This document shows positions 13,468 to 56,217 of a stretch of DNA of 64,000 nt, in pieces; the first letter of the stretch is position 1, and each line of letters begins with the position of its first letter. Made by a program: the position numbers and the translations under genes. Below the pieces are notes generated by a model. The model was not told the origin of the DNA. It worked only from the letters and a program-made list of their open reading frames with translations, and ran no database searches. Source of the stretch: Bacteroidota bacterium (GTDB lineage Bacteria > Bacteroidota > Bacteroidia > 2-12-FULL-35-15); NCBI GenBank assembly GCA_003151815.1, contig PLYN01000040.1, positions 5,859 through 69,858 of the forward strand. Reading direction: 5' to 3'.

Positions 13468-13494
13468 ATTTGCTTTGCGATTTTTGTGGTAATT

Positions 13495-13689: not shown

Positions 13690-13708
13690 GATTTTAAAAA
13701 TAATTAAT

Positions 13709-15313: not shown

Positions 15314-15322
15314 AATTATTTC

Positions 15323-15422: not shown

Positions 15423-15448
15423 GAAATTATTTTACAGACAGATACTAA

Positions 15449-15994
15449 TTATAATCTAAAATTCATTCCAACTCTAATAACCGGATTTTGATAAGGTGTA
15501 TAATAGGACTCGGTGAAATTGTATAATATCATGGCTACAAGAGCAGATCTGCGACCAAATTGTTGTATATATCCGCCACCGGCCAATAAACTTCCAACAT
15601 CAACTCTTCTTCTTGGAAAAAAATCAAATGCTTCCAGATTCAAATATTCATACTCAGCATGTGCGAATAAAAAATTTGTTAGCATGTACCTGCCGAATAC
15701 TCTGGCTCCATATACATTTGTTTGAATGTTGAAATATTGATCTTTGTATTGATAGTATTGATAAGTGATACCAATGCCAACCGAAAATTTCTTTGTGATC
15801 TTATATCCCACCAATGGAGACACAGCTAAAAATGTTGAAGTACCAAACTGTAAACCGACATTTCCTCCAAAATATACTCTATTCCAAAATGGTTGTTTGG
15901 GTGGAGTTCTTCGTATTTTAATGCTATCCGCTTGTGCGATAACACCTGTGGAGAGAAGTAACAGGAGCGCAAAGATTTTGAATTTTATTTTCAA
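15449..15994 (-). CDS. Small outer-membrane beta-barrel protein
   Basis: Signal peptide, alternating aromatic/hydrophobic strands, C-terminal ...VGMNFRL. Confidence 0.55.
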   Translation of the reverse strand: MKIKFKIFALLLLLSTGVIAQADSIKIRRTPPKQPFWNRVYFGGNVGLQFGTSTFLAVSPLVGYKITKKFSVGIGITYQYYQYKDQYFNIQTNVYGARVFGRYMLTNFLFAHAEYEYLNLEAFDFFPRRRVDVGSLLAGGGYIQQFGRRSALVAMILYNFTESYYTPYQNPVIRVGMNFRL

Positions 15995-16064
15995 TGGATT
16001 AATTTATTAGTTTTTGGAATTTAGATAAAAATACGTTTCTTTGAGTTAAATCAAAAATAAAATT

Positions 16065-16775
16065 ATGAATATTATAGTTACAGGAGCAAGCAGAGGAATA
16101 GGTTATGAATTGGTTAAATTACTAAGTGCCGATCCCAACAATACTATAATCGCTATTTCCCGCAATTCTCAGAAATTAGAACAACTAAAAAAAGATTGTA
16201 CCTCTCTTAATATTTCATCAAAAGTTATACCAATAGCATGTGATTTAAGTGATAAAAGTGCAATTGATAATTTACATTCTGAAATAACAAAACATATTAA
16301 AACAGTAACTGTTTTAATAAACAACGCCGGAGCTATCGTAAATAAGCCATTTGCAGAAATCACCTCAGAAGATCTGGAGTATATATACAATGTAAATGTT
16401 TTTTCAGTAGTTCGGCTTATTCAGAAAATATTGCCCATCATCGATACCGATCAAAGATCACATATTGTGAATATTAGCAGTATTGGCGGATTTCAGGGAA
16501 GTTTAAAATTCGCAGGTCTTTCGGCATACAGCTCAAGTAAGGCGGCATTGGCATGTTTAACAGAGTGCTTGGCAGAAGAGTTCAAAGAAAAAAATATAGC
16601 TTTCAATTGTTTGGCATTGGGAGCCACACAAACTGAAATGTTAAACGAAGCTTTTCCGGGCTATAAAGCACCACTAACTGCGGCTCAAATGGCAGCGTTT
16701 ATCGCTCATTTTTCATTAACAGCACATCAGTATATGAATGGTAAAATTATTCCGGTGTCATTAAGTAATCCTTAA
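16065..16775 (+). CDS. Short-chain dehydrogenase/reductase (SDR)
   Basis: TGASRGIG cofactor motif, NNAG, and catalytic YSSSK. Confidence 0.85.
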   Translation: MNIIVTGASRGIGYELVKLLSADPNNTIIAISRNSQKLEQLKKDCTSLNISSKVIPIACDLSDKSAIDNLHSEITKHIKTVTVLINNAGAIVNKPFAEITSEDLEYIYNVNVFSVVRLIQKILPIIDTDQRSHIVNISSIGGFQGSLKFAGLSAYSSSKAALACLTECLAEEFKEKNIAFNCLALGATQTEMLNEAFPGYKAPLTAAQMAAFIAHFSLTAHQYMNGKIIPVSLSNP

Positions 16776-36945: not shown

Positions 36946-38598
<1,653 letters not shown>

Positions 38599-38618
<20 letters not shown>

Positions 38619-38985: not shown

Positions 38986-39888
38986 TTAATCAAATATTAC
39001 TTTTACAGTATTTGAAATTTTTGTTATCATTCCCTTATGGCTCTTTAATTCAATATCCTGATATGAACCTTCCTGTAAAATATCTACGATTCGTTTTTTT
39101 GGATTTTCAGATTTTGTTAGTTTAAGATGTTTCATCTTTTTGTCTAAAAAGCTAATTGAAATAGTATCATAATTACCATTATGAATTAGTTCCATTAATC
39201 TAATTTCATTGGGTTCTAATAATTTTAATTCAGGAAATAGATAAACACAATTTTTATCAAGTAAAAAATCTTTAATTATTTTTGAAATAGATATGTTAAT
39301 ATGAGATTCGTAAAGTTTTAATTCTCTAATTTCCTTATCATAAAGCTCCTCTTTCCCTTCATACCAAATTACTACACCGCCGTTTTTAAATAAAAGAATT
39401 GAAGTCGGTATTTTTTGAAGTATGGAGTGAATTATTGCTATATAAAAATGTGTTAATCCTTCTTCATTAACTTTTTTTTCTCCGTCCAACATTAGTTGTA
39501 TTATTTCATCTTTTTCTGCTTCGGCAAAGGACATTGTCTTTTTTAATTCATTAATATTCTTTTTAAACTCTTTGTATAATGGCTTTGAATCTATCAATTC
39601 AAATAAAAAATCTTTGGATTCCTTTATTAATTCAATAGGAACACCTAAGTCCCTCATTTCAGAAATTACCCTTATCCAAGCATAATCTATGAAACTGAAA
39701 TTTCGCCATTGAGGTTCATTTTTTCTCTGTGAACTTAATATTCCTTTTTTATCCCAATAGTTAATATTAGTATATGTTACACCGACATCTTTCGGATTAA
39801 ATATTTCTTTATTCATTGACATAGCCAATTCAATTGACTTTTCAAATGTTTTTGCTCCAAAAAACGGGTCAAGAATTAATTTGTTCAT
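38986..39888 (-). CDS. MerR-like HTH protein (candidate island regulator/excisionase)
   Basis: N-terminal DVGVTYTNINYWDKKGILS...WRNFSFIDYAWIRVISEMRDLGVPIELIKE follows the MerR-type HTH/wing pattern; 300 aa. Confidence 0.5.
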   Translation of the reverse strand: MNKLILDPFFGAKTFEKSIELAMSMNKEIFNPKDVGVTYTNINYWDKKGILSSQRKNEPQWRNFSFIDYAWIRVISEMRDLGVPIELIKESKDFLFELIDSKPLYKEFKKNINELKKTMSFAEAEKDEIIQLMLDGEKKVNEEGLTHFYIAIIHSILQKIPTSILLFKNGGVVIWYEGKEELYDKEIRELKLYESHINISISKIIKDFLLDKNCVYLFPELKLLEPNEIRLMELIHNGNYDTISISFLDKKMKHLKLTKSENPKKRIVDILQEGSYQDIELKSHKGMITKISNTVKVIFD

Positions 39889-40725: not shown

Positions 40726-43700
40726 TCACGGTGATAGATCTTTAATTTTAAATTGGAAGTAGTAATCTTTTGGTCGGGCTAAAAATCTTGGATTATCTTC
40801 AAAACTTTCTCCTTTATCAAAGGAAAATAAATCTTTTATAATATAGATGTTTTCATCTTGTACCAAAGCCATTTCGTATTTGTCAGGTTCAGACAATCCT
40901 TTATCTTTTTCAGAATTAGAAATAATAAAGTAATCGTCAGATATAGCTTTAACTTCCAAATATTTCCAATCGCCTTTATCGTTTTTATATTCAATGTCAT
41001 AATGCAGCTTATCGTTTTTATCAGGTGTTGTGGAGTTTCCTGATACCCACTTCACATGATCAACTCCATGTTGTTTGACAAGCGTATTGTAAACTAATAC
41101 CTCTGCATTTTTTCCTTTTCGTTTTTTCCCTTGTTCACCTTGTCCAGAATGAACCCAACTACCGCCACCGTTCGAACCTCCGCCAAATGAAATCAACTTT
41201 CCGTTTTTGCTCAATGATGCGTCAATTATTTTACCAGTTACTTTTGCATTATCTCCACTATTATTTGAATCGGTCTCATTGTCGGTTGCGAAATTGATTT
41301 TTAAATACTCCTCAACTAATTCCGAATTGCCTTTAAAAAACATAATACTACGAACAGCTTGGTCTGTAATGTCTGTTTCTTCAATGCCGTATTTTTTCAA
41401 AAGGTCGGTGTAGTAATTCTTTATCTCTGTATTGTCAGAAAGGGAATCGTCAATAGTGATTTGAAAATATTTTTTTATTAATCCCTTTAACTCTTTTAAA
41501 TATTCAACATTCAACTCAAATTGCATAGAAATAATTTTGTCTTCAATTAAAAAAATGAATTCAAGATTGTATTTGTTAAGTGTTGAAATAAATTTTGCTT
41601 GTTCGCCTTGCTCTGCATTTAATTTTTTCCAAAGCGATTGCTTAAATTTATTCTCAATATCTTTTAGTGTTTCTTTAAATCTTTCTTGATGCCAATTAAA
41701 TAATCCCTGTGGTAAAATCTTTTTTACACCAAGCGAAAGTTTAGTGGATATAATTTGGATGAGTTCAAAACTTGTTTTGTTTTTGAAATTTTCAAAATCA
41801 ACATGCTTATAATCTTCAGATAGTTCTATTCCTAAAACTTTCAAAATATTTTGTTTTAGCTTTTTTGTGTTTTCAATTGGTTCGTGGAGTTGTTTTCCTT
41901 TCAGGGCAAAAATTGTTTTCCAAAAGTCAATTTCAATTCTTGAAATTCCAAGCAATTGAAATGCTTGTTCAACTTTTTCTTTACCGAAATCTTGTGTAGC
42001 TAAATGATGAGTATCTTGAAAATCATTTTTAAAAATTTGTCTGAAATCATTTTTCAAATCGTTCACCTTAAAAACAATACACATCATTTCTGCGAAAGCA
42101 TCACAGAAGATTGAATCTTTTCTTAATTCGCTAAGTGAAGTTAAGTTATTGTCCCTGTAATAAAATTCGTCTTTCACATTGATAAACTCTTTTTCTTCAA
42201 CTGGAATTTTTTCGTTGTCGCCAAATTTGAAATAGCATTCGTTTACGATATGAATTCTACATTGCCTTAAAGTTTTTGCCTCTTTCCCTTTTGTATCGGT
42301 ATCTGTTATTTTTTTTTTAAGGTTTGGTGCATCTAATCTGTATGCTAAAATGTATGGCTTTATTTGGTCAAATAGTTTATTGAGTTCTGCATCGCATGGG
42401 CTATGCTTAATAGTGCTTTCGTCAATTTCAATTTTAAATTCTCGTAAACTTTTTACGCCAAAATATTTCTCTACATTATCTTCCCCAACTCTTTTGGGAA
42501 GGTTTAGTATGTGTAAAGTATCAAGAATTTTTCGTGGTAGAATATTGTTGTCGGTGTAGTAAATACTATCACTCTTTTTATATTCTTCAACTGCCCCTTT
42601 TTTAGAAAAAAAAATCAAATCATCAGGAACAGGAAATTCTGATTCCTGCTTTACCAAACTTTCTAATGCCATTTTGTAAATACTCTGTGTCGCCTTTCCT
42701 TTCTTGGTTGCATCTCTTTCAGGAATGGCATTAATAATTTCATAAATATTTTCAGGTGAAATTTCATTGAAAGATTCTTTAGCACCTAATTTAATCAGAA
42801 TGGATTTTACTTCTGTTTTATTAATTCCGTATTGATTTAGAAACTCATAATCAATTTCAAAATTTTCATTGATAAGTTTGTTTAGTTCTTCTCCACCTTC
42901 TTCCATTACATACTTTGTGAAAATATCAGAAGAAATAAATTGATAGCGTATGTATGAATATTCAGGGAATATTGTTGGTCGCCACCTTGTAAAATACCAA
43001 TCAATCTTTTCACTATTGGATTCCAATCTTAATCTAATCTGCTCATCTTTTAGAGTAAGAAGTATTAAATGAGTTATTGGAATTTTTAGTAGTTGTTCAA
43101 AGTTCATAATTTTTGAAAAGAAAATATTCTTTGCGAATGTTCCTCTATCAAAATCATCGGGCTTATCTAATCCAGTAGCAAAAATGAAATTGAAATAATT
43201 TTGCTCTGACCAGTTGCTTACCACATTAACTAATTCAATTTTGGAAAATTTATTTACACCCAACCATATAAAAAAAGTTTCTACAAGAGTTTGTTCTTCG
43301 TCTTCCAAACTCCAAAAATCAACTGATGCTAAATATTCGTTTGCTTTTATCGTATTACTATAAATGGCTTCTGTTAATAGTCCGCTTGGATATGTTTTGC
43401 TTAAAAACAAATCCTCCGAATCAATAATTTGTTTGGTTTTTGAAACTAATGGAACTGTAATTTTTAATTTCTCTTGTCTGTTCTCTATGTGCTTAAAATT
43501 AGCATATAACGCAATTATCATTTCTCTGATGCAAACGAGTTTCTCTTTATTGTTGCGAAAGGACTTTAAAGCGTCTTTAGTACCAGTAATAATTTTGTCA
43601 ATTACATTGTTGCTGTCGTATGGTTGTAAATTGACAACGGATTTTATTGCTCGTTGAAGTTCTCTTGATTTTGGTTCTTTTTTATCAAACGAACTTTCAA

Positions 43701-45294
43701 AGTTTGAGATAAGCAAATCAAACAATGCTGATTTCATAAAATCAACTTTCACCGATTTCGGAATACTAAATTTTTCATCTGACCTTATAACCGGAGTAAA
43801 AGCTAAGTCATCTTTGGGTATAACCTTATCCGATTCGTTGACAAGCAATGAAAAACGCAAAGCATCGTCAGTAAATGAAATGACTTTTGAAAGTTGAATT
43901 ATTAATGTAGCACGATTGGGAATTGAAATATCTGTTAGTGATAGCTCGTCAATTTTTTGAACTAAGTATTCCGAATTGAATTTATCGTTTGCAAATTTCC
44001 CTTTTAGTACTTCTCCTAATGGTAAAATTAGCCCAGGTAATGTTGTGGGAAAATTTTCTTGAAAAAACGAATTGAATTCATCGCTGTAATAAACTGCTTC
44101 ACTCAATGCTTGATATTGGTTACTAATGCAGGGGTAAATAGTTGCTTCCTTTTTTACTGTTTCCAAATCATTATAGAATGCCTCAATTAATTTTGAATCA
44201 GAAGTTCTTTGCGTAGGAGTTAGTAATTTATATGGTCTCCAGTCTATTTTTTCGGTAGTGAGAAACAAAGCACAATCTTTTAATAACTTAACCAATTGTT
44301 TCAGGATGTATTCATTCTTTTTGGAAGCGTTCAAGTGATTTCTTGAACTGTTTAATTCAAATGTGCCGTGAATGATACAAGGCAGTGAAATTGATAATTG
44401 AGTAGGAAAATAATTGAATAGTTTCTTATAATCGTCTGATAAATTATCACGAAGGGCAACCTTTAAATTGAAGGACTGTTTTTCGTTTTGGTTTTTATCC
44501 TGATACTCATCAGGCAATATATTATCTCTTGAAAAAACCTTCCACGACTTGTCTTTTATTTTTACGGATTCGTAATCACTCTTTGGCTTTTTAATGCTTG
44601 CTAATTCTATGTTTTCATTTTCGGCAGTATGAATTGTTATTTTTTGAATGTTGTTTAGGAATAAAAGAATTTCTTCTTTGATTTCTGCAAGTTGGTTTTC
44701 AATATCAGTTTCAAATTCCTGTTTGCAAAAAATCTCAATACTGGTTGTCCATTTCGTTTTTGTATCATCGTCTTGAACACTTGGAATAGCTAATGTTGGA
44801 AAAGGCAGAGCTTCTTTTGTTAGGTTTCTTTCCTCTCTAATTTTTTCCTTGTCGCTTTGCGACAAGTTTAATTTATTATTGAAAACATCTTTCGCAATAG
44901 CATCAGAGAAAGATAGTTTACAACCATTGGTGCAAATGTTTATGAGTGTTGCCCAGTTGAGAATTGACCTAAAGCCCAGTCCTTTATTTCCAATATAACT
45001 TACTTTAGTTTTTGTGCTGAGATTGGCAAGCATCAATGACTTTATTCCCCCAACTGAAAATGCTTCACCTTTATTTGAAATGATTAGTTGAGAAGTGGTT
45101 TTGTTCCAACTTATTTCAACTTCTTTAGAACCTGCATCATCTGCATTTTGCAGAAGTTCTAATAACTGCCTGCCGTTATATTCTTTTGTAAGTTCTACCT
45201 CCCTGTTATAATCAGATAAAAACCTATCGGGGTTATCACAATAGGTTTTAAGGTTACTATCAATCAACTTTGCTATTTCCTTTTTAAAATTCAT
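40726..45294 (-). CDS. 1522-aa GHKL (sacsin/NO VEIN-type) ATPase with a C-terminal DUF3883-like PD-(D/E)xK nuclease domain
   Basis: N-box ELLQNADDA (aa 46-54) and G-box GNKGLGFRS (aa 102-110). Gly-rich linker GGGSNGGGS. C-terminal GKNAEVLV...HYD(1433)IEY...LE(1447)VK(1449)...SNSEKD. Confidence 0.7.
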   Translation of the reverse strand: MNFKKEIAKLIDSNLKTYCDNPDRFLSDYNREVELTKEYNGRQLLELLQNADDAGSKEVEISWNKTTSQLIISNKGEAFSVGGIKSLMLANLSTKTKVSYIGNKGLGFRSILNWATLINICTNGCKLSFSDAIAKDVFNNKLNLSQSDKEKIREERNLTKEALPFPTLAIPSVQDDDTKTKWTTSIEIFCKQEFETDIENQLAEIKEEILLFLNNIQKITIHTAENENIELASIKKPKSDYESVKIKDKSWKVFSRDNILPDEYQDKNQNEKQSFNLKVALRDNLSDDYKKLFNYFPTQLSISLPCIIHGTFELNSSRNHLNASKKNEYILKQLVKLLKDCALFLTTEKIDWRPYKLLTPTQRTSDSKLIEAFYNDLETVKKEATIYPCISNQYQALSEAVYYSDEFNSFFQENFPTTLPGLILPLGEVLKGKFANDKFNSEYLVQKIDELSLTDISIPNRATLIIQLSKVISFTDDALRFSLLVNESDKVIPKDDLAFTPVIRSDEKFSIPKSVKVDFMKSALFDLLISNFESSFDKKEPKSRELQRAIKSVVNLQPYDSNNVIDKIITGTKDALKSFRNNKEKLVCIREMIIALYANFKHIENRQEKLKITVPLVSKTKQIIDSEDLFLSKTYPSGLLTEAIYSNTIKANEYLASVDFWSLEDEEQTLVETFFIWLGVNKFSKIELVNVVSNWSEQNYFNFIFATGLDKPDDFDRGTFAKNIFFSKIMNFEQLLKIPITHLILLTLKDEQIRLRLESNSEKIDWYFTRWRPTIFPEYSYIRYQFISSDIFTKYVMEEGGEELNKLINENFEIDYEFLNQYGINKTEVKSILIKLGAKESFNEISPENIYEIINAIPERDATKKGKATQSIYKMALESLVKQESEFPVPDDLIFFSKKGAVEEYKKSDSIYYTDNNILPRKILDTLHILNLPKRVGEDNVEKYFGVKSLREFKIEIDESTIKHSPCDAELNKLFDQIKPYILAYRLDAPNLKKKITDTDTKGKEAKTLRQCRIHIVNECYFKFGDNEKIPVEEKEFINVKDEFYYRDNNLTSLSELRKDSIFCDAFAEMMCIVFKVNDLKNDFRQIFKNDFQDTHHLATQDFGKEKVEQAFQLLGISRIEIDFWKTIFALKGKQLHEPIENTKKLKQNILKVLGIELSEDYKHVDFENFKNKTSFELIQIISTKLSLGVKKILPQGLFNWHQERFKETLKDIENKFKQSLWKKLNAEQGEQAKFISTLNKYNLEFIFLIEDKIISMQFELNVEYLKELKGLIKKYFQITIDDSLSDNTEIKNYYTDLLKKYGIEETDITDQAVRSIMFFKGNSELVEEYLKINFATDNETDSNNSGDNAKVTGKIIDASLSKNGKLISFGGGSNGGGSWVHSGQGEQGKKRKGKNAEVLVYNTLVKQHGVDHVKWVSGNSTTPDKNDKLHYDIEYKNDKGDWKYLEVKAISDDYFIISNSEKDKGLSEPDKYEMALVQDENIYIIKDLFSFDKGESFEDNPRFLARPKDYYFQFKIKDLSP

Positions 45295-45333
45295 TCCACG
45301 TTGGCTTCTTTTGGTTATTTTTTCATTTGAATT

Positions 45334-45570
45334 TTAAATTTCACGGAGCCAAGGCAATTTCTTAAGTTGGTATTTTCCAAATTCCTTTAAATAATTATTT
45401 GCCCATTCTATCCCACTATCTATTTGGTTTTCCAAATTAGCATTTTTGTATTCAAATTTTTTTATGTTTGTTAGGTGATGGTATAAATCATCAAACATCC
45501 AAGTCGCTCCTTTACCTTCTTTTTGCATGTTCCGCACCGCCTCTAAATAAAACTCCGTGTGGTAAAACAA
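45334..45570 (-). CDS. 78-aa ORF overlapping the end of the truncated hsdM in another frame; doubtful gene
   Basis: Non-ATG start; no HsdM C-terminal motifs (no LP.nlF-type strand). Confidence 0.2.
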   Translation of the reverse strand: MFYHTEFYLEAVRNMQKEGKGATWMFDDLYHHLTNIKKFEYKNANLENQIDSGIEWANNYLKEFGKYQLKKLPWLREI

Positions 45571-46639
45571 TTGCCATAGTTCCGTTCTCCGCCAAATGAT
45601 GTATCATGTGTTGCACAAAAGCAAAATCAGCTTTGCTGCTTGGTGCAAGTTTACCATATTGGCTAAAGCGGTCATCACTTGTAAACAAAGGGTTGGCACT
45701 CCACTGTGCGGAGAATGGGGGATTGGCTACAATGGCTTCAAAAGTTTTGTTTAAATGCTGTGGGTGTTCAAGTGTGTCCTCTTGTTTAATATCAAACTTG
45801 CGATAATGCACACCGTGCAAAATCATATTCATTCGTGCAAGGTTGTATGTAGTCCTATTCATTTCCTGTCCGTAAAAGTTGCTTACTTCTTTTACTTCCT
45901 TAGCCACACGGAGCAATAAAGAACCTGAACCACAAGTGGGGTCGTAAACAGATTTTAATTTGCTCTTTCCTGTGGTTACAATTTTTGCCAACACTTTACT
46001 TACCTCTTGCGGTGTATAAAATTCTCCCGCAACCTTTCCCGCCCCACTTGCAAACTTTCCGATTAGATATTCATAAGCATCACCCAATACATCCAATTCA
46101 GTTTGCTCCAATTTAAAATCAATTTTATCAAGGTGTGATAGCACTTTTGCAATAATTTCATTTCTCGCTTCGGGTGTTTTTCCCAGTTTCGTACTGTTCA
46201 AATCCATATCCTCAAAAAGATTGTCGAAATCTTCTTCGCTATCAGTTCCCATTGTACTGAGTTGGATATTAGTCAGAATTTTTTGTAAGTCTTCAATAAT
46301 GAAATTATTTACTTCTTCAATATCACTATTGCCACGTTTAGCAACTTCACTAAACAGTTCGGACGGTTTTAAAAAGTACCCTAATTTTTCTAATGCTTCT
46401 TCTTTGATTGCTTCAATGTATTCTTTGCCTTGCTTGGTATTTTCTTTAATGGATTTGTAAGTGATTTTATCAGTTTTCAAAATGGTATTTGCATAAATCT
46501 CCATTTTTTCTGCAAGGTATTTATAGAAAATAAAGCCCAAAATATAATCACGGAATTCGTCCGCATTCATTTTACCTCTTAGCGTATTGGCTATATTCCA
46601 AAGCTGTTGTTCAAGTTGTTTTTTTTGGTCTTCTGACAT
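45512..46639 (-). pseudogene. hsdM: C-terminally truncated type I R-M methylase subunit (HsdM-like), orphan
   Basis: HsdM_N-type N-terminus (LWNIANTLRGKMNADEFRDYILGFIFYKYL); motif I VYDPTCGSGS (aa 231-240); motif IV NPPF (306-309). Ends 5 aa after LPHGVLFRGGAE. No hsdS or hsdR nearby. Confidence 0.65.
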
Positions 46640-46684
46640 CTATTTTGTGTATTATTTGGTAATATAATATGTGTTAGATGCTGT

Positions 46685-49600
46685 TTAATGCACCAATATT
46701 TCTGAAATTCTTTTCCATTCCTGACCGGAAAGCTTTGAATTCTTTGGGGCAAGATTATCCCAATCTTGGTTAGTCAAAGATTTAATTGTACTACGGATTT
46801 CTTTAAGGGAAGTAGGTTTACTTTGGTCTATTATAGGTGTTAATGTGAATGCTAATCGCCTTGGAATACCTGCCATTCTCATTAATAAAGCATCTTTATT
46901 ATCAACTCCAAAATAAACCAAAGATGGAACAAATGAATTTTCTTTAATGTCAAATTCACTTCCATTAACAATGCCTTCTAATGCACTTAACCCCCAAGAT
47001 GCTTTAAATCTTGAATCGTTAATGTATTTGATAAATTTATTTATTCTATCAGATTCGCTTGCAATATTTGCAAAGGTTTGATGATATGAAGAAATATTAA
47101 ATAAGTTCTCCCCTTTAACCCAACCAATTAAAACATTTGCAACTGATTCAGGGCTGAATTGCGCACTTCTGTTTTCAGTACCTAATTTCGTTTCTCTTAG
47201 CTGTGCAATTACTCTTATTTTTTCAGTGAGGTAATCATTATTGAAGTTAAATAAATTACTCGGCTCCCAACTTTCTGGTGATGAAATTTTAGGATTGCTT
47301 GAGTTTTCAGCCATAATTGCTAATACAGAGGGAACAGAGAACCCTGTTTTATCTGCATAAACCAAAACCCCCTTTTTATATTTATTTTGAAGATGTACAA
47401 AAATTGCTTTACAAACTTCAATAAATTTTTTACGTTTATCATTATCGGTTATTTGAAAATAACCTAAACTATCTTTAAATAAATCTTCTATTTGAAGAAC
47501 TGAACTTTCATTCGTACTGTTCAATAAATGGATTAAATATTGAATGAGTGGAGCTAAAGAATTATGATATTTTTCTGACAAAACATTAATTGCACTTCTT
47601 TCGGAGTTAGCAATTATATATAATATGTCATCAGCTTCATTTAAAAACTCCAATAATACACTTACAATATCAGTTGTGCTTTTTGTAATTATTTCTTTGG
47701 CTTTATTTGCATTTTCAGTAGAATTAAACGGAAATATTAACTTACCATAATTATCTACTAATGTTCTCCCTGCTCGCCCTGCAATATTCCAAAAATCACT
47801 TGAGCTTAACTCACCTCCCTGCCCTTTTTGATAGGAATCAAAGTAAACTGCCGAAACAGGAAAATTAACCCCTTCAGCTAAAGTGCTTGTAGAGAAAATA
47901 TATTTAATTTCTTTTTGGCGAATAAGGTGTTCAATTAACAACTTTGTTTCATCAGATAAACCTGCGTGATGAACTGCAATTCTTTTCGATAATACATCTG
48001 ATAAAATAGTAGGTCGTCCAACTTCATCTTCAATGTATTTTTTAACAAGAGATATACTCTCAGATACATTATTTTCAGTTAATTTTGATGCTATATACTG
48101 TGCTTGAGTATCTGTTGTTCCAGCACCTTTGCAAAGGAATAGGATAGATTTATTATCCTGTGTAAAATGCTTGGCACTAAATTCCATCAAATTCTGTTTG
48201 TCCGTACCTGTTAAATCATAAGGATTATTCATTATCGGCAACTCCCTTTCTATTACTTCAGGGTCAAAAACAGAAGGAAGATGCGTAAACGATATTTGTT
48301 TAAACTTGTTTTTTTGTTTAATCCCAATTAATAACTTCTCGGCAGGTTTCCAATCTATTTGAATTGGAACTTTAATTTTATTTCCACCAATCCAGTTGGC
48401 TAATAATTCTCCTGAATTTTTTAAAAATGGAGAAAGGAACATAAACTTTGATTCAGGTCTTTCCCTTTTTAATATTGACAATAGTAATTCCAATCTTGCA
48501 CCACGACTTCCGTTCTGAATGGAGTGAGCTTCATCAATTATGAAAAGGGATACATCTTCAACCGATTTATGTTTTCTACGAATTAACAAATCAATTTTTT
48601 CAGGGGTTGAAACAAGTATATCAATTTTATCGCTTAATATTTCATTTTCTGATGGGTCAACCTCAATTGCTCCCGATGTTTTTTCGATTGCGAAATCTAA
48701 TCCTTCAAAATCAGTTTTGAGGTCATTATATATTTGATTAACTAATGCACGAGATGGAACAATATAAATAACCTTAGATTCATTATTTAGCGCCTTTGTT
48801 ACAATGATGTTAAACTCAGCCAATAATGTTTTACCTGCACTTGTTGGCATTTGTACAACCGTTACATTAGACGCAATATCTAATAGGTTTTTATTAAGTG
48901 CCTCCCTTTGTGATGGTAATAACTCTATGATTCCATTTTCAATTTGATTTTTCTTGACACAAAACTCTTTGAGTTTTTTTATTTGAATAGAATTCGTAGA
49001 ATACCAAATTGAATTTCGTTCAATTGTAAGCAGATTTGATTCTAAAATATTTATTATCGAAGAAAATCTTGGTAACGCTTTAAAAATTTCACGAGCAACG
49101 CTTGTGTGAATTCTAATTTCGCTATCTAATCTGTTTTTATAATTGTATCCTTCAATTAAAAATTCGGATGTTTCAGTTATTGGTTTTGTTAAATGATATA
49201 ACCCAAGCAAGTATTGAGCTTGTTCGATAACCTCAATTTCATTATTTAATTTACTTAAATATTTCTCTTCAAATTCCTTTTGTTCACTTTTTAATTTAGA
49301 TATAATTTCTAAACCAGTTTTAATATCTGTATATCCTTTATCTTTTCTAACTAATAAAATGAACGCTTGAAATAAATTATTTAAAACACGTTCTTCCCAA
49401 TCATTTCTTGAATAATCCTTTACATCGAACTCCCTTAAATCAAGCCTAATTTTAATTGTTTTATCTGAAAGTAGAGCCAAAGAGGATAAAAAGAAATAAT
49501 ATAACAACTCGTCATCTAACTTTTGAATTCCAAAAACAGAGTTGAATGTTTTTTTAAAGTCATTGCTTTTTATATCGTATGATTTCAATAAGGTATAAGC

Positions 49601-49807
49601 AGTTTGAATATACTTTTTCTCTGCAATTGAATCTGAAAATATATGATTTAATAAAACGGAAGCTAATCGAAGATTTTTAATAACACTTTCTGGACTTTCC
49701 TCTATTTGACTAAATCCTAATTCTGATTCCAAATAAATATCCTCCCTATCATTAATACATTTAATGATTTCAGAGTCGTTTAAAATAATATCTATTAGGT
49801 CTGCCAT
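46685..49807 (-). CDS. hamB: Ski2-like DExH helicase (HamB-like)
   Basis: Walker A MPTSAGKT (aa 320-327); DEAH (425-428) followed by SRGARLE; motif VI-like GRAGR; ~300-aa N-terminal and ~400-aa C-terminal extensions. Confidence 0.6.
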   Translation of the reverse strand: MADLIDIILNDSEIIKCINDREDIYLESELGFSQIEESPESVIKNLRLASVLLNHIFSDSIAEKKYIQTAYTLLKSYDIKSNDFKKTFNSVFGIQKLDDELLYYFFLSSLALLSDKTIKIRLDLREFDVKDYSRNDWEERVLNNLFQAFILLVRKDKGYTDIKTGLEIISKLKSEQKEFEEKYLSKLNNEIEVIEQAQYLLGLYHLTKPITETSEFLIEGYNYKNRLDSEIRIHTSVAREIFKALPRFSSIINILESNLLTIERNSIWYSTNSIQIKKLKEFCVKKNQIENGIIELLPSQREALNKNLLDIASNVTVVQMPTSAGKTLLAEFNIIVTKALNNESKVIYIVPSRALVNQIYNDLKTDFEGLDFAIEKTSGAIEVDPSENEILSDKIDILVSTPEKIDLLIRRKHKSVEDVSLFIIDEAHSIQNGSRGARLELLLSILKRERPESKFMFLSPFLKNSGELLANWIGGNKIKVPIQIDWKPAEKLLIGIKQKNKFKQISFTHLPSVFDPEVIERELPIMNNPYDLTGTDKQNLMEFSAKHFTQDNKSILFLCKGAGTTDTQAQYIASKLTENNVSESISLVKKYIEDEVGRPTILSDVLSKRIAVHHAGLSDETKLLIEHLIRQKEIKYIFSTSTLAEGVNFPVSAVYFDSYQKGQGGELSSSDFWNIAGRAGRTLVDNYGKLIFPFNSTENANKAKEIITKSTTDIVSVLLEFLNEADDILYIIANSERSAINVLSEKYHNSLAPLIQYLIHLLNSTNESSVLQIEDLFKDSLGYFQITDNDKRKKFIEVCKAIFVHLQNKYKKGVLVYADKTGFSVPSVLAIMAENSSNPKISSPESWEPSNLFNFNNDYLTEKIRVIAQLRETKLGTENRSAQFSPESVANVLIGWVKGENLFNISSYHQTFANIASESDRINKFIKYINDSRFKASWGLSALEGIVNGSEFDIKENSFVPSLVYFGVDNKDALLMRMAGIPRRLAFTLTPIIDQSKPTSLKEIRSTIKSLTNQDWDNLAPKNSKLSGQEWKRISEILVH

Positions 49808-49809
49808 TC

Positions 49810-50643
49810 TTATTTAGAACATATCTCTTGAACCTTGTTGTAAAAAAGATCAACCGTATTTTCTATACTTTGATTAAAATTAACTATACAAAAACTTATT
49901 TGATGTGGGTCAAAATCTGTTTTTTGAGTAAAAAATTTCCCGTAATCATCATCAACTTTAACGCAATTTATATCTCGAATTAAGGCACAACCAAAAACTA
50001 AATCATATTTGTCATTCTTATCAAACTCTATTAAAAGCAATGCTATGCCAATTTTTGTAGCATCTTCGCCCGATAATTTACGAGTATAATCACTTAATTT
50101 ATTTAGTAACTCTTGCTTGTTGTTTTTAAATTTAAGTTGTGTTGTGTGCATTGAATCCTTAGTGTAATCAACTACATCGGGTGGATTTTTAACTTGATGA
50201 GACACTTTAGCTTCGCCAATAAGTAGCTCAATTTTATCATTAATTAATCTATATCCAACTGCATCAATTCCTCTTCCCGGTAGCTGCGCTAATTCTCGAT
50301 TGGTAATATTTTTGTAGGGAATTTTAAACCTTTCTTTTTCGGGAAGTTTCTTTTCAAAAAAAGAAGTCAGAAGCATTTCGCCTAAATCACTTCTGTATAT
50401 ATCATTAATTACAGCAGGTGTTTTACCCGCATCTCTATTAATATCTTTTGCAACCGAATTTCGTGTAATAATTTTTTCTAATTGTTCTCCATTAAATCCG
50501 TGTGATTGAAACAATAAAGATTTCTCAATTGAATTGTAATCGAATTTGGTTTCCGAACGCTGTTTTATATATAAATTAGAAATACGTTCTATGTATTCGT
50601 CATTTACAGTTACGTCTAATTTTTGAAAATTGTGCTTTGACAT
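49810..50643 (-). CDS. hamA: DUF1837-like PD-(D/E)xK nuclease (HamA-like)
   Basis: 277 aa. GID(127)AVGY...LLIGE(144)AK(146)VS nuclease triad. Sits 2 nt upstream of the helicase gene, the Hachiman gene order. Confidence 0.55.
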   Translation of the reverse strand: MSKHNFQKLDVTVNDEYIERISNLYIKQRSETKFDYNSIEKSLLFQSHGFNGEQLEKIITRNSVAKDINRDAGKTPAVINDIYRSDLGEMLLTSFFEKKLPEKERFKIPYKNITNRELAQLPGRGIDAVGYRLINDKIELLIGEAKVSHQVKNPPDVVDYTKDSMHTTQLKFKNNKQELLNKLSDYTRKLSGEDATKIGIALLLIEFDKNDKYDLVFGCALIRDINCVKVDDDYGKFFTQKTDFDPHQISFCIVNFNQSIENTVDLFYNKVQEICSK

Positions 50644-50661: not shown

Positions 50662-50694
50662 TGACCAACAAACTAAATATTAGTTTGCTGGTCA
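50662..50694. promoter_or_regulatory. 14-bp-arm inverted repeat just upstream of the hamA-like start
   Basis: tgaccaacaaacta-aatat-tagtttgctggtca (1 mismatch), 19 nt from the start codon at 50643. Confidence 0.45.
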
Positions 50695-51072
50695 GTAAAT
50701 GTAAAAAAAAATCTCATTTAGATTTCATTTAGAGGGAGGGTATTTTAACACGCACCCTCTAATAACTCTATAAGCCTGTGTTAATAAGCCTCTTAAAAGA
50801 CATTTAGCTCTCCATTCCGTTTAAATCTGCCATTTTGAATTGGAACTTTTGAATGAATCAGGGGGAATATCATTCACTAAATATCCGAATTTCTCCTTCC
50901 TGATTAAACCTGCCATTTTGAATTGCTTTACCTTTTTCAGCTTAAAAAAGAAGACGATATGAATGATAGTGATATTGCCTATCTAAAGAATGGTTATGTT
51001 ATCATAGATTTATCTACTTGTCTAAACCAAAAAGAAAACATAATTTGGGGGAAATCCAATATAACGTATTAG

Positions 51073-51555
51073 CTATGATGGAACAGACAACAGTTGTCTA
51101 TTCATCTTGTTATTAATATGAATTGTAAAATCTTTATTTATAACTTCAATGCAAGCACCTTTAAAATCAACATATAAGTCTTCGCACCTTAAATTTATTT
51201 TAGGTGTGCCATTTTGTTCGTATTCAATCATGTGTTTCATTTCGTTTTTGCTTGAAAGTCCAAGATGTTTTTTGGGAACAAAAGAATGGGCAAAACCATT
51301 TCTTAAACTATCCCATAATTTATATTTAACCCTTATTGGTGTTCTATATTTTTTAAAGGAATTTAAGGTGTCAATTGCTTTATTGAAATTTTTTTCAGAA
51401 CCGCCTTTATTCCAATCTTTCTGGTTTACATCTAAACATTTGCCCAAAAACTCAATTCCAATACCCATTAAAGCAAATGTTATGTATGGGTTAGTTTCGG
51501 TTAGTTTTTCAAATTCAGTAATAAAAACTTGTTGGATAAATTGTTTAGGATACAT
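51073..51555 (-). CDS. Small helical protein with an Rx4H motif (HEPN-like candidate)
   Basis: 160 aa; LWDSLRNGFAHSF matches the HEPN R-N-x-x-x-H signature. Confidence 0.35.
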   Translation of the reverse strand: MYPKQFIQQVFITEFEKLTETNPYITFALMGIGIEFLGKCLDVNQKDWNKGGSEKNFNKAIDTLNSFKKYRTPIRVKYKLWDSLRNGFAHSFVPKKHLGLSSKNEMKHMIEYEQNGTPKINLRCEDLYVDFKGACIEVINKDFTIHINNKMNRQLLSVPS

Positions 51556-51681: not shown

Positions 51682-52308
51682 CTATTCAAACATTTCCTTT
51701 AAGTATTTTGCGGTTTTTGCAAGTTGTTTATTGACTTTGTCCATGTCAAAAAGGAAAGGGTCGTATTTCTTTCCGAGCCATGTGATAATTTCTCTATATT
51801 CAGGATGGTGTTCATCCTGTATGATTTCTAATTTTTCATAAAAGCCATGTAAGCCACCGCTATCTTCGTGCGGGCAATTCATAGCCCCTGCCACACAAAC
51901 TGGATACTTCATATCTTTCTGTATCGGAACGGTTTTTTCCAATACGACTTGATGTTCCCAGCTATCACCAAAATCATATAGATAAGTGATTTCATCGCCC
52001 GCTTCTTTAAAATAGTTTTCAATTCGTTCTTCGGATGCGTTCAATTTTTCTTTATCAAACAAATCATTTTCTTCACTTGGTAAGCAAAAAGTTTTTTCTC
52101 TATCCATAAACTCAAACAGGTGGCTGTTTGTCCAACCCATCGCTAATTGTATGGCTATGTGTAATTCTAAAAACGTAGCGTTGCTTTCTACCTGTATGCG
52201 CCGCCAAATAAGAGGTTTGCTGTGGTTCAGCGTTATTCTAAACTGAAGTATTTTGTTCATGGCTGTTATTTTACTTGTCAAATGTAGGAAAAAGATTAAT
52301 TTTTCCAA
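51682..52308 (-). CDS. pRiA4b ORF-3-like family protein
   Basis: FRITLNHSKPLIWRRIQVESNATFLELHIAIQLAMGWTNSHLFEF is the hallmark N-terminal block of this family. Confidence 0.7.
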   Translation of the reverse strand: MEKLIFFLHLTSKITAMNKILQFRITLNHSKPLIWRRIQVESNATFLELHIAIQLAMGWTNSHLFEFMDREKTFCLPSEENDLFDKEKLNASEERIENYFKEAGDEITYLYDFGDSWEHQVVLEKTVPIQKDMKYPVCVAGAMNCPHEDSGGLHGFYEKLEIIQDEHHPEYREIITWLGKKYDPFLFDMDKVNKQLAKTAKYLKEMFE

Positions 52309-53067: not shown

Positions 53068-53367
53068 ATGAGCGATTTAGTTTACGACATAGAAAAAGTT
53101 TTTTCAAGCTATCTTTCTGAAGATGGAAAAACGCATTACAATATCCCCGAGTATCAACGAGGGTATAAATGGTCGTCTGTCGAAGTAGAAAAAATGCTCA
53201 AGGATATTAAAAGGTTCAAACCGGAAGAAGATAAATTTTATTGCCTACAAAACATTACAATCGTTCCAAAAGAAAATTACACTTACTACAGTCAGGATGC
53301 ACAATTCTATCCGGCATTGTCCCCGATAGAAAATGCAATTAAATCGGTTCCTGTAATTACGAATTAA
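53068..53367 (+). pseudogene. N-terminal fragment of a DUF262 (GmrSD-like) gene
   Basis: YNIPEYQRGYKWS motif. The ORF ends at 99 aa, before the expected DGQQR block; the remainder is absent. Confidence 0.6.
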
Positions 53368-53411
53368 TCACATTATGTTGTGATATTTGTTGATAATTGA
53401 AATGAAATACG

Positions 53412-53419
53412 TAATTTTG
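53412..53419 (+). promoter_or_regulatory. Candidate -7 promoter box for the hipB/S/T-like operon
   Basis: TAATTTTG lies 20 nt upstream of the ATG at 53439. Confidence 0.45.
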
Positions 53420-53438
53420 CATAAATAATCACACTATA

Positions 53439-53651
53439 ATGTTAGCCAAAATAATAGGACAAATCATCCAACAACGCAGAAAAGAGCTGGGAATAACACA
53501 GCCCGACTTAGCCGAGTTAGCCAGTGTGAGCAAAAATACGCTCTACAAATTAGAGCGAGGACAAGGCAATCCATCTTTGGATGTTTTAACTAAGTTAGCA
53601 GAAGTATTAGGTTTGGAATTGAAATTAGAAGTAAAAAAAAATAAACTTTAG
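53439..53651 (+). CDS. hipB: XRE-family HTH protein (HipB-like)
   Basis: RRKELGITQPDLAELASVSKNTLYKLERGQGNPSLDVL is a classic Cro/C1 HTH. Confidence 0.8.
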   Translation: MLAKIIGQIIQQRRKELGITQPDLAELASVSKNTLYKLERGQGNPSLDVLTKLAEVLGLELKLEVKKNKL

Positions 53652-53681
53652 ACAATATTTCTTTAGGAATTAATATGATCC

Positions 53682-54011
53682 ATGAGAAAAGCAGAAGTAT
53701 ATCGTAACAGAGAATTAGCAGGAGTACTTTCAGAAGAAGTACCCGGACGGAATTATACATTCCGTTATGAGGATACCTACTTTGCTGATAAGGATAAACC
53801 CGCCATCAGCTTAACATTACCTAAAATACAACAGGAATACCGCAGTAAATTTTTATTTCCATTCTTCAGCAACATGCTTAGTGAAGGGGCTATTAGAAAA
53901 CTGCAAAGCCAATTACTTAAAATAGATGAAAGAGACGATTTTGGAATTATGCTGGCAACTGCACAGTATGATACCATTGGAGCCGTTACCGTAAAACCAA
54001 TCAATAATTAA
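53682..54011 (+). CDS. hipS: HipA N-terminal subdomain protein (HipS-like)
   Basis: 109 aa; ELAGVL...FRY...ISLTLP...PFFSNMLSEG...DTIGAVTV matches the HipA N-subdomain pattern. Confidence 0.75.
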   Translation: MRKAEVYRNRELAGVLSEEVPGRNYTFRYEDTYFADKDKPAISLTLPKIQQEYRSKFLFPFFSNMLSEGAIRKLQSQLLKIDERDDFGIMLATAQYDTIGAVTVKPINN

Positions 54012-55016
54012 ATGAGTTTACCAACTATAAAATATTGTCCGGGAACATTAGCAGAAGGATTTACAACATACAGTACAACATGTCTGCGAAGTACGTTTAA
54101 TGGAAAAAAAGTAAGTCATGTATTGCCGTTTGAATCACCACAACAAAGTGAAGAAATAGTAGCGTTGTTTATGGAAAATATGAAACACATTTCTATTTCA
54201 GGTGTGCAACAGAAACTAAGTTTGGTGCAGGAGAAAAACTTACTTCGCTTAACGAATGAAAATGAACAAGGCACGCATATTTTAAAACCAATTCCATCTT
54301 TGTTGAAAAAAGCCGGTATGCTTCCGGCAAATGAACACCTCAGTATGCAAATAGCACGACAGGTATATGGAATAAACACGGCTGAAAATGCTATGATATT
54401 TTTTAAGGACGGCACACCTGCATATATTACCAAACGCTTTGATGTAAAGCCAGATGGTGGTAAGTTGGGTAAAGAAGATTTTGCAACATTGGCTGGTAAA
54501 ACCAAAAATATTTCAAATGAAAATTATAAGTACGAATTCAGTTATGAAGAATTAGGTTTACTCATTCAGAAAAATGTTCCGGCATGGGTAGTAGAAATTG
54601 AAAAATATTTTTCGTTGGTACTTTTCAATTTTCTTTTCAGCAATGGCGATGCACACCTGAAAAATTTTTCACTTTTAGAAACTTCAAAAGGAGATTATAA
54701 GCTCAGTCCTGCTTATGATTTGATAAATTCAAGGATGCACGTGGACGATAGCGACTTTGCTTTTAATAAAGGATTATTTGCTGATGGTTTCAAGTCTGAA
54801 AAATTCAAAAAGAACAATCACCCATATAAAAAAGATTTTGCGGTGTTTGGAAAAAGAATAGGTATGCAGGAAAATAGGATGGAGCGGATAATTCAGTCAT
54901 TTATAGAAAAACAGAAAATGGTTGAAATACTCATAAATCATTCATTTTTGGATGATGCGGGCAAGAGAGGATATTTATTGCAATACAAAACGCGAAGGAA
55001 TTTTTTAATTGGCTAA
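54012..55016 (+). CDS. hipT: HipA-family Ser/Thr kinase lacking the N-subdomain (HipT-like toxin)
   Basis: Gly-rich loop S61-I-S63-GVQQK; catalytic loop NGDAHLKNFSLL. The ATG directly follows the hipS-like stop. Confidence 0.8.
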   Translation: MSLPTIKYCPGTLAEGFTTYSTTCLRSTFNGKKVSHVLPFESPQQSEEIVALFMENMKHISISGVQQKLSLVQEKNLLRLTNENEQGTHILKPIPSLLKKAGMLPANEHLSMQIARQVYGINTAENAMIFFKDGTPAYITKRFDVKPDGGKLGKEDFATLAGKTKNISNENYKYEFSYEELGLLIQKNVPAWVVEIEKYFSLVLFNFLFSNGDAHLKNFSLLETSKGDYKLSPAYDLINSRMHVDDSDFAFNKGLFADGFKSEKFKKNNHPYKKDFAVFGKRIGMQENRMERIIQSFIEKQKMVEILINHSFLDDAGKRGYLLQYKTRRNFLIG

Positions 55017-55099
55017 TATAATAATTGATTATTGGTATAAAGATTAGGAATGAAAAAATGTTTTAAGTAATCCTTTAAAGCACTTTGTATTTCGATTGA

Positions 55100-55146
55100 T
55101 TAAATTTGCCCCAATTATTTATATCATAACAAATTTTTAAAAATCA
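55100..55146 (+). repeat. Left copy of an imperfect direct repeat bracketing the EamA gene (contains TAAATTTG)
   Basis: ttaaatttgccccaattatttatatc is identical at 55100-55125 and 56171-56196. Weaker similarity continues for a further ~60 nt. Confidence 0.75.
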
Positions 55147-55211: not shown

Positions 55212-56129
55212 ATGAAACACATAAAAAAGAATGGCGTATTTCAAGCATTTATAGCCGCTTTTCTATTTAGTGCCAGTGCTCCATTATCCAAATTATTGCT
55301 CAATGGAATTTCTCCTATTATGCTTGCTGGATTAATTTATTTTGGAAGTGGGATTGCTCTTTTAACAATTAAAGGTGTTAAAATATTATTAAATAAACAG
55401 CAATTGAATAATGACTTTAACCGAAGAGAAATATTATATCTAATAGGAAGCGTATTGATTGGAGGGGTAATTGCTCCCATTATATTAATGATAAGTTTAA
55501 AAAATAGTCCGGCAGCTACTGCTTCACTTCTATTAAACTTTGAATGTGTCTCAACAACATTTTTAGCGTTTTTATTTTTTAGGGAAAAAATAGGAAAAAG
55601 AATTTGGATTTCTGTATTCTTAATAACAGTTGCAAGTATTTTATTGACAATAGATTTAAAAGATAATTGGGGATTCTCTTTAGGTTCAGTAGGAATAATT
55701 TTTGCAAGCATTTTATGGGGATTGGATAATAATTTTACAAGGAATATATCTGAGAAAGACCCATTGACTATTGTGGGAATTAAAGGATTGGGAGCTGGCA
55801 TAATTTCAATAGTCATATCACGGATATACAATAACCCAATTCCAGTAATGAATAATATTTTATTGGCAATGTTATTAGGATTATTTTGTTACGGTTTAAG
55901 TATCGTTTCTTTTGTTTTAGCACTCAGGAGGCTTGGAAGTTCAAGGACAAGCATAATTTTTGGAACAGCTCCATTTATTGGAGTAATAGTATCATTTTTA
56001 ATATTTAAGGAGATACCCAATATTTATTTTTTTATTTCTTTACCACTCATGATTTATGGAACATACCTTATGTTAACTGAAAACTATGAACTTCAAAAAA
56101 AAGCAATTAGCCATAGTTCGCTCCAATAA
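55212..56129 (+). CDS. EamA/DMT-superfamily transporter
   Basis: 305 aa; about ten TM helices arranged as two EamA-like halves. Confidence 0.75.
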   Translation: MKHIKKNGVFQAFIAAFLFSASAPLSKLLLNGISPIMLAGLIYFGSGIALLTIKGVKILLNKQQLNNDFNRREILYLIGSVLIGGVIAPIILMISLKNSPAATASLLLNFECVSTTFLAFLFFREKIGKRIWISVFLITVASILLTIDLKDNWGFSLGSVGIIFASILWGLDNNFTRNISEKDPLTIVGIKGLGAGIISIVISRIYNNPIPVMNNILLAMLLGLFCYGLSIVSFVLALRRLGSSRTSIIFGTAPFIGVIVSFLIFKEIPNIYFFISLPLMIYGTYLMLTENYELQKKAISHSSLQ

Positions 56130-56170
56130 ACGAAATTTTAAAAAATTAGACAATCACTTGGCAACAGTTA

Positions 56171-56217
56171 TTAAATTTGCCCCAATTATTTATATCCTCG
56201 CAAATTTTTTAAAATCA
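56171..56217 (+). repeat. Right copy of the direct repeat bracketing the EamA gene
   Basis: See the 55100-55146 entry. Confidence 0.75.

Follow-up and report, generated by a model that had tools for sequence, protein, structure and literature searches.

Do five closely spaced genes on one strand encode a single antiviral system, or have separate systems come to lie side by side? This question arises at positions 40,726 to 50,643 of a 64,000-nucleotide (nt) stretch of DNA from a Bacteroidota bacterium (assembly GCA_003151815.1, contig PLYN01000040.1, positions 5,859 to 69,858 of the forward strand; hereafter, the window). Here, five consecutive minus-strand open reading frames (ORFs) follow one another: M23A, M23B, a truncated methylase gene (hsdM'), an ORF of 78 amino acids (aa), and the giant gene tmtA. 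An initial annotation of the sequence offered two options, either two stacked systems or one larger sensor/motor/effector system. Our analysis indicates that the block very probably consists of two stacked anti-phage systems, both already catalogued, together with two gene stumps, and forms a patchwork in a small, decayed defence island. The first option was retained on the grounds of independent assortment and full-length matches to catalogued systems, and the second was dropped.

The coordinates of the five ORFs were reproduced, as were the gaps between them (2 nt, 45 nt, an overlap and 39 nt). All five frames are present as first annotated, but the 78-aa frame could not be kept as a genuine gene of the block, as it combines out-of-frame hsdM codons with a gene remnant. 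The G+C content stays at approximately 28 to 34% throughout the block, like the remainder of the window. Profile searches, which the initial annotation had called for, were carried out with PADLOC and resolved the block into a PDC-M23 pair, hsdM', the remnant and TmtA.

Profile and structure matches of the block genes

The first two genes, M23A (positions 49810-50643, minus strand, 277 aa) and M23B (46685-49807, minus strand, 1040 aa), are assigned to a Hachiman-type nuclease-helicase pair of the PADLOC candidate clade PDC-M23, because the M23A family matches HamA and M23B matches HamB by both profile and predicted structure. Both products match models of the candidate, and their genes adjoin with a gap of 2 nt. 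M23B matches PDC-M23B (PDLC04531) over its full length at 1.7e-198, and the best of many HamB models is HamB1 (4e-70, residues 177-1014). The best 25 of the 46 PADLOC families that it matches are those of M23B, HamB, SngC and BrxH, and Pfam assigns DEAD, ResIII and Helicase_C domains. With a profile of 17 M23B homologues, the E. coli Hachiman helicase HamB (8vx9_B) is matched at 3.4e-41, alongside Ski2, Hel308 and Brr2 helicases. An AlphaFold2 model on the 17-homologue alignment is of moderate quality, with a predicted local distance difference test score (pLDDT) of 69.7. When this model was queried with Foldseek, the three best PDB matches were HamB chains over the full length (8vx9_B, E=4.4e-18, TMq 0.51), with Hel308 next (TMq 0.32). 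The Walker A (GKT) and DEAH motifs are intact, and K326 and D425-E426-A427-H428 are invariant in the alignment. M23B is predicted to be a HamB-type, Ski2/Hel308-like superfamily 2 helicase, and Pfam, profile and Foldseek results all agree with the Ski2-like helicase that had been recognized at first sight.

M23A alone matches PDC-M23A in PADLOC at 4e-9 (34 bits, a partial match over approximately 106 of 265 positions) and HamA at 3e-4; two PDC-M23A models are matched in all. Among its orthologues, 13 of 19 match the Pfam family HamA (PF08878, formerly DUF1837; best 1.4e-7) and 17 of 19 match PADLOC HamA1. The best PDB match of the M23A family profile is HamA itself (8vx9_A, E=3e-4), with the ExK motif aligned. 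In this alignment, the invariant residues E144 and K146 of M23A coincide with the catalytic E138 and K140 of HamA, and the invariant D127 coincides with a HamA aspartate. At the family level, M23A is a putative divergent HamA-type PD-(D/E)xK nuclease in which the predicted catalytic residues D127, E144 and K146 are conserved. The proposal that the first two genes have a Hachiman architecture was therefore well placed, with M23A resembling HamA and M23B resembling HamB by profile and structure.

PDC-M23 has been described as a cassette residing within BREX, DISARM or type I restriction-modification (R-M) systems (Payne et al. 2024, doi 10.1101/2024.01.29.577857), where cassette CAS_00096 is listed as 'PDC-M23', a multi-gene phage defence candidate with 161 instances (supplementary table 8). 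In the literature searched, PDC-M23 is named only in this supplementary table, and no experimental test of it was found. The mechanism of Hachiman (HamAB) has been described (PMC12278908). If the pair works like its E. coli homologue HamAB, the M23B helicase would scan intact DNA and hold the M23A nuclease in check. Damaged or aberrant DNA, or aberrant DNA ends, met during infection would then elicit ATP-driven helicase activity of M23B and free M23A, which would degrade DNA.

The giant gene at the other end of the block (positions 40726-45294, minus strand, 1522 aa) is identified by profile as a full-length tmtA, the gene of the Tiamat system. Its product matches the PADLOC model PDLC03964 at E=0 (1051.7 bits), with residues 3-1518 aligned to positions 9-1537 of the 1538-position profile, and all six PADLOC families that it matches are TmtA models. 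A long middle region connects an N-terminal GHKL/sacsin-like ATPase to a nuclease-like DUF3883/NOV_C domain at the C terminus. In Pfam, SACS (1.9e-10) and HATPase_c_3 are matched at the N terminus and NOV_C (DUF3883; 2e-7) at the C terminus; NCBIfam adds a sacsin-type N-terminal ATP-binding-like domain (4e-18). These matches bear out the initial description of a giant ATPase with a DUF3883-like nuclease tail. Homologues of approximately 1520 aa number 1009 and are found mostly in Bacteroidota. TmtA looks catalytically intact by sequence, since the GHKL N-box (E46, N50, D53), the glycine box (I101-R109) and D1433...E1447-x-K1449 are invariant in an alignment of 19 homologues. A profile search of the PDB returned no solved relative at E<=0.01. 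The N-terminal 420 aa gave a marginal match to sacsin (0.048), and the C-terminal 140 aa gave nothing meaningful. Within this single polypeptide, the ATPase would serve as an ATP-dependent sensor or switch that controls the nuclease-like effector. Tiamat has reportedly been catalogued as a single-gene anti-phage system, by Millman and co-workers in 2022. When the window gene is compared to relatives with 83% and 77% protein identity, DNA homology is confined to the ORF (45296->40723). The initial annotation had regarded the combination of genes as unlike any described system; with Tiamat matched at E=0 and PDC-M23 also on record, this view does not hold for its parts.

The two intact modules are arranged head-to-tail, with the stumps between them. 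In the hsdM' ORF (positions 45512-46639, minus strand, 375 aa), codons 1-370 derive from a gene for a 523-aa EcoR124-type type I methyltransferase, after which come five junction codons and a stop; the breakpoint is at 45528. Over these 370 residues, the product shares 94% identity with intact relatives; identity to hundreds of HsdM proteins of 522-523 aa is 90-94%. The DNA is 85% identical to intact hsdM genes from 46642 to 45528, after which the similarity ends abruptly. The protein ends in ...LPHGVLFRGGAE|HAKRR*, where intact relatives read ...GGAE|QHIRKYLIEDRNYL... (GGAE|QHIRKYLIE). The same truncation appears in the profile matches: Pfam recognizes HsdM_N and an N6_Mtase domain cut at position 198 of 311, TIGR00497 is covered from position 1 to 383 of 515, and the alignment to EcoR124II HsdM spans residues 7-370 of 520, leaving the C-terminal ~150 residues missing. 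Among the best 25 of the 44 PADLOC families matched, type I methyltransferase models rank on top. The closest full-length HsdM relatives are encoded in intact hsdM-hsdS-hsdR operons, one of which carries PDDEXK_3 and Abi_2 guests between hsdS and hsdR.

A complete HsdM of approximately 520 aa, HsdS and HsdR, which together would define a type I system, are all lacking here. Neither HsdS nor HsdR was detected in the 64-kb window by tblastn (five HsdS and five HsdR queries from five operons), nor were remnants of them found around tmtA. Likewise, no Pfam match to Methylase_S or HSDR_N was obtained among the approximately 22 scanned ORFs of the island and its immediate flanks. The initial observation of a truncated HsdM without HsdS or HsdR partner is confirmed and narrowed to 370 of 523 codons. 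HsdS is needed for both activities of type I enzymes (PMC11411939), and, since no HsdS is detectable in the window, hsdM' cannot form a type I enzyme. From its sequence, we classify hsdM' as a pseudogene relic and not as a component of a system.

The fourth ORF (78 aa, positions 45334-45570, minus strand) overlaps the hsdM' ORF. Its first 14 codons are out-of-frame hsdM sequence, and the rest is the 3' remnant of an uncharacterised gene that is unrelated to hsdM. This remnant occupies 45334..45528 on the minus strand, covers the last 63 codons of that gene and can be read as a 64-aa ORF from 45528. It has no match in Pfam, NCBIfam or PADLOC, and none of the hsdM or tmtA loci compared has a counterpart of the 232 bp beyond the breakpoint (45295-45527). 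An exhaustive HMMER search with the 64-aa ORF retrieved 36 representatives among 1.84 billion proteins, and the match always comprised the C-terminal ~62 residues. The search delineates a rare domain of ~62 aa without a Pfam model and with the signature 'LQexGKGATWMFEDaY...WAE...LPWL'. Its carriers are proteins of ~300 aa without a Pfam domain, NACHT/STAND nucleoside triphosphatases (one with NCAB2), a pentapeptide-repeat protein, and ORFs of 69-130 aa. The window remnant, the tail of such a domain, is 5'-truncated: in its homologues, a conserved PHVAKxAECVT segment immediately precedes, on the N-terminal side, the position at which it starts. The domain is absent from approximately 180 other loci checked, and tblastn of the 64/78-aa ORF against plasmids gave only marginal matches, in Priestia. 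The possibility that this ORF is the C terminus of an HsdS or HsdM was considered and rejected, as it is similar to neither. At the 45528 junction, as read from the sequence, the 5' part of hsdM is joined to the 3' end of an unrelated gene; this points to deletion or illegitimate recombination rather than a designed operon. Both hsdM' and the 64-aa ORF are probably inert.

Assortment of the two modules and signals within the block

Related loci were compared to establish whether the M23 pair and tmtA belong together. The M23 sample consisted of 80 metagenome loci fetched with the M23B alignment, 42 of which have at least 2 kb downstream. The TmtA sample consisted of 80 genome loci fetched with the TmtA alignment and several metagenome contexts of closer relatives; 35 full-length TmtA loci were counted. 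In 77 of the 80 metagenome loci, M23A lies directly upstream of M23B, and the two genes are 2-5 nt apart or overlap slightly. Not one of these 80 loci contains a TmtA homologue. Conversely, neither M23A nor M23B occurs in the 80 genome loci fetched with the TmtA profile or beside tmtA in the metagenome contexts of closer relatives, and no PDC-M23 gene is present in the 35 full-length TmtA loci, the window's own excluded. The M23 pair and tmtA assort independently. Such a co-occurrence check across genomes had been named beforehand as decisive in the initial annotation, and its outcome goes against a joint system. The exact arrangement of the window was found only on copies of the same single 72-kb metagenome scaffold.

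The neighbours of TmtA vary over the 35 full-length loci and include an MksE block, a pair with a prokaryotic Argonaute (pAgo), R-M genes, or nothing recognisable. Together with DNA homology that stops at the ORF ends, this variability is what a single-gene system would display. In four loci (L082-L085), a tmtA gene with 77% identity comes after a four-gene block encoding proteins of 909, 269, 410 and 172 aa, the last of which is MksE-like. In another (L178), a tmtA gene with 61% identity is directly followed by a Piwi-domain pAgo gene and a DpnII-MboI-like gene.

Signals within the block were then considered. A consensus scan found no convincing intrinsic terminator between the ORFs, in line with the initial annotation, which had seen no obvious hairpin there; the sole match inside the stretch is a weak 6-bp stem within hsdM'. 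In the region as a whole, 7 terminator-like sites were counted where chance would give 5.6. No structure is predicted at the hsdM'-tmtA junction, which folds no better than shuffled sequence (z = +0.85). A candidate block promoter with a sigma-70-like sequence (TTTACA-17-TAATAT, 50662..50705, minus strand) lies 18 nt upstream of the M23A ATG and is probably, judging from its sequence, the promoter of the block. Its -10 element sits in the loop of a perfect 15-bp palindrome (50662-50694; TGACCAGCAAACTAA-TAT-TTAGTTTGTTGGTCA), a possible operator. The RNA fold of this region has a z score of -6.0, and two more hairpins precede the palindrome (50662-50760, minus strand). No comparable palindrome is present upstream of M23A in 72 other M23 loci. 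The Bacteroidota-type -7 motif (TAnnTTTG) is missing from the minus strand of the block and shows no enrichment across the window. Ahead of M23A, 430 bp of non-coding DNA also contain two 34-nt direct repeats (50809-50842 and 50892-50925), which are 85% identical and 83 nt apart. Because no terminator intervenes, all five ORFs may be co-transcribed from the promoter upstream of M23A. If real, this co-transcription is a by-product of juxtaposition and no evidence for a single system.

Could the five ORFs nevertheless act as one larger sensor/motor/effector system, with helicase, methylase fragment and ATPase-nuclease cooperating? Their common strand, tight spacing and lack of a predicted terminator speak for it, as does the single promoter-like site with a palindrome ahead of the first gene. 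However, the pair and the giant gene never occur together in the 80 and 35 related loci, and each module has a full-length match to a catalogued system that is self-sufficient. What looked like a methylase gene is only the 5' part of one, broken at a mapped position and followed by the 3' end of an unrelated gene, and the exact arrangement is seen only on copies of one scaffold. On balance, we consider a single five-gene system highly improbable. There is next to no chance that we are looking at an Hma-type (helicase, methylase, ATPase) system, or at some relative of it, with embedded guests. This resemblance had been raised in the initial annotation, and a helicase, an N6-adenine methylase and an ATPase do form a superficial triad on one strand; Hma itself is a real system of Payne et al., and Hma systems carry embedded guests (Payne et al. 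2024). At the profile level, however, no homology to Hma is found: the ATPase matches TmtA models only (all six families), no Hma model is among the best 25 of the 46 families matched by the HamB-like helicase, and the methylase is a broken HsdM with type I models on top of the best 25 of its 44 families and 94% identity to bona fide HsdMs of hsdMSR operons. These results effectively refute the Hma reading.

Type I operons as hosts and a possible origin of hsdM'

Embedded defence genes are frequent in BREX, DISARM, Hma and type I R-M systems, and such 'guilt-by-embedding' yielded the PDC candidates (Payne et al. 2024, bioRxiv 10.1101/2024.01.29.577857). PrrC is cited as a guest found nearly always in type I R-M systems (Payne et al. 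2024), and TgvAB, on VPI-2 of V. cholerae, is an experimentally tested guest of a type I operon (PMC11411939). Relatives of both window modules were observed in comparable positions. The order hsdM-hsdS-tmtA-hsdR is found in 6 of the 35 full-length TmtA loci (L010, L013, L026, L086, L089, L176), and tmtA also lies between hsdS and hsdR in L179, outside the 35-locus count. In the closest TmtA clade (at least 59% identical to the window protein), four of seven informative contexts are embedded between hsdS and hsdR and one of seven is adjacent to a type I operon. Some embedded loci show a 4-nt overlap of hsdS and tmtA. The HsdM proteins of the tmtA-hosting operons fall into at least three families (523, 689 and 865-885 aa), with 24-32% identity between families. 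Approximately 80% of the full-length TmtA loci are without R-M neighbours. The PDC-M23 pair, for its part, is a guest in the hsdS-hsdR interval of at least 10 of the 80 M23 loci (L114, L091, L117, L095, L105, L093, L102, L120, L119, L096). In L114, the order is hsdM (5409-6902), hsdS (7929-9143), M23A (9169-9993), M23B (10001-13120) and hsdR (13153-16092).

Some further details of these loci were recorded. In most embedded loci (the six listed above and L179/L180), tmtA lies at about 10001-14500. The hsdS-hsdR interval of L179 holds, besides tmtA, PDDEXK_13/REase-ARP and SLFN_AlbA_2/HATPase_c_4 genes. In L181, tmtA is located just downstream of a type I operon, after hsdR and a DUF3800 gene, on a conjugative element.

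Because both modules recur as guests between hsdS and hsdR, hsdM' may be what is left of a type I operon in which tmtA was once a guest; the 3' third of hsdM, hsdS and hsdR would then have been lost and tmtA kept. The analogy has gaps, in that the HsdM family of the window is not the one that flanks tmtA elsewhere and no sampled type I operon contained the intervening remnant.

The type I enzyme EcoprrI silences its embedded PrrC nuclease. If HsdM' behaved in a similar way, the two systems could be separate and the stump still functional, either as a decoy or sensor for phage anti-restriction proteins or as a negative regulator that keeps TmtA latent, like EcoprrI and PrrC. PrrC offers the precedent of a guest nuclease in type I R-M systems, the closest TmtA clade is embedded in four of seven contexts (in part with the 4-nt hsdS/tmtA overlap) and adjacent in one, and hsdM' is a clean frame of 370 codons immediately upstream of tmtA. 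Yet a recent deletion could explain the clean frame, and Tiamat is said to be a single-gene system. Moreover, approximately 80% of full-length TmtA loci manage without R-M neighbours, and at least three unrelated HsdM families host tmtA, which argues for a passive cargo site rather than a specific partnership. The stump also lacks its C-terminal region, and HsdS is absent although it is required for type I activities (PMC11411939). We therefore regard a functional stump as very unlikely. A bolder version, to which we would give equally little credence, holds that, in the window clade, TmtA is a guard of the PrrC kind: the Hsd complex would keep it latent until a phage inhibits restriction, and HsdM' would be a minimal silencer or anti-restriction decoy. 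This would fit the five of seven informative contexts of the closest clade that are in or beside hsd operons, as well as the clean hsdM' frame. The R-M-free majority of TmtA loci (~80%) and the descent of the hosts from several unrelated HsdM families speak against it.

Several points weigh against two stacked systems with stumps between them, which we continue to prefer. The tight spacing and the missing terminators are compatible with an operon. The window M23A matches HamA and PDC-M23A models weakly (18-34 bits) and has no Pfam match, and a single-sequence AlphaFold2 model of it is unusable (pLDDT 32.8). In hsdM', the 370-codon frame is uninterrupted and the S-adenosylmethionine-binding and NPPF motifs are intact, making a residual role conceivable. 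The tmtA-hosting type I operons elsewhere use other HsdM families (24-32% identity), and hsdM' and tmtA are putative former mates of one operon. The co-occurrence samples are finite (80 M23 loci, 42 of them with at least 2 kb downstream, and 35 full-length TmtA loci), and many contigs are short. Finally, this reading of the locus draws on sequence comparison and structural models.

Read as two stacked systems with stumps, the locus illustrates cleanly how defence cassettes can outlast the decay of a type I R-M operon and its neighbours, and its breakpoint is mapped to the nucleotide. The recurrence of Tiamat between hsdS and hsdR in three type I families is, in addition, a lead on the regulation of guests by their host R-M systems.

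Island context and comparison with known systems

The block is located in a stretch of approximately 18 kb between a tRNA-Met and serine recombinase at ~36.9 kb and a hipBA-like module at ~55 kb. The tRNA-Met gene (36946-37019, plus strand) was identified by tRNA search and is the sole Rfam match. The large serine recombinase gene (36978-38618, minus strand, 546 aa; Resolvase, Recombinase and Zn_ribbon_recom domains) overlaps the tRNA-Met gene with its last ~14 codons, and a gene with a MerR-type helix-turn-helix (HTH) lies nearby (38986-39888). The housekeeping genes era and der are found immediately outside this border. The tRNA-Met and the serine recombinase gene are probably the integration site, recombination module and border of the island. 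No direct repeat of the tRNA-Met 3' end marking the far border was found, as expected for a serine recombinase. On the other side of the block, a truncated GmrSD_N gene (53068-53367, plus strand, 99 aa), covering profile positions 3-53 of 199, is the second decayed defence gene of the island. The stretch fits an integrated element with a partly decayed defence island because of the tRNA-Met/recombinase border and this second broken defence gene.

The truncated GmrSD_N gene is followed by the hipBA-like toxin-antitoxin module (53400-55016, plus strand), which is split into an HTH gene, a HipA N-terminal part (53682-54011) and a HipA C-terminal part (54012-55016). Beyond this module lies an EamA transporter gene (55212-56129), which is flanked by 48-nt direct repeats with 92% identity (55099-55146 and 56170-56217). 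Immediately upstream of the block, two minus-strand genes were annotated, a 160-aa ORF without family match (51073-51555) and a PRiA4_ORF3-family gene (51682-52308; 2e-59). Neither of the two accompanies M23 or TmtA in other loci.

Taken together, the locus belongs to what is already known: both modules are catalogued, the embedding phenomenon is published, and the combination is not conserved. As a discovery it carries little weight, since its intact modules are catalogued and their juxtaposition is not conserved. What is gained concerns PDC-M23, which, assigned by profile and structural model to a divergent Hachiman, acquires a testable mechanism.

Compared to Hachiman, for which E. coli HamAB provides the reference structures (8VX9, 8VXA, 8VXY; PMC12278908), the window pair is likewise a two-gene module of nuclease then helicase, here with a gap of 2 nt. 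It is very divergent, however, with M23B approximately 16% identical to E. coli HamB in the structural alignment, and PADLOC lists its clade separately as the candidate PDC-M23 and not as Hachiman. It also differs from published PDC-M23, a candidate embedded in host systems, in that the window pair is not inside an intact system. The window TmtA shares with Tiamat (PADLOC PDLC03964-72) its length class, its domain architecture and an end-to-end profile match. There is no structural difference in the window copy, but it sits behind two gene stumps, and many relatives of its clade lie inside type I R-M operons. With Hma (Payne et al. 2021 and 2024), the window shares only three enzyme classes on one strand. 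In contrast to type I R-M systems, its hsdM is truncated and hsdS and hsdR are absent, leaving no functional R-M. The closest parallel is found in type I operons with guests, in which relatives of both window modules occupy the hsdS-hsdR interval, and the window keeps the 5' hsdM stump of an EcoR124-type operon, whose intact relatives also carry guests.

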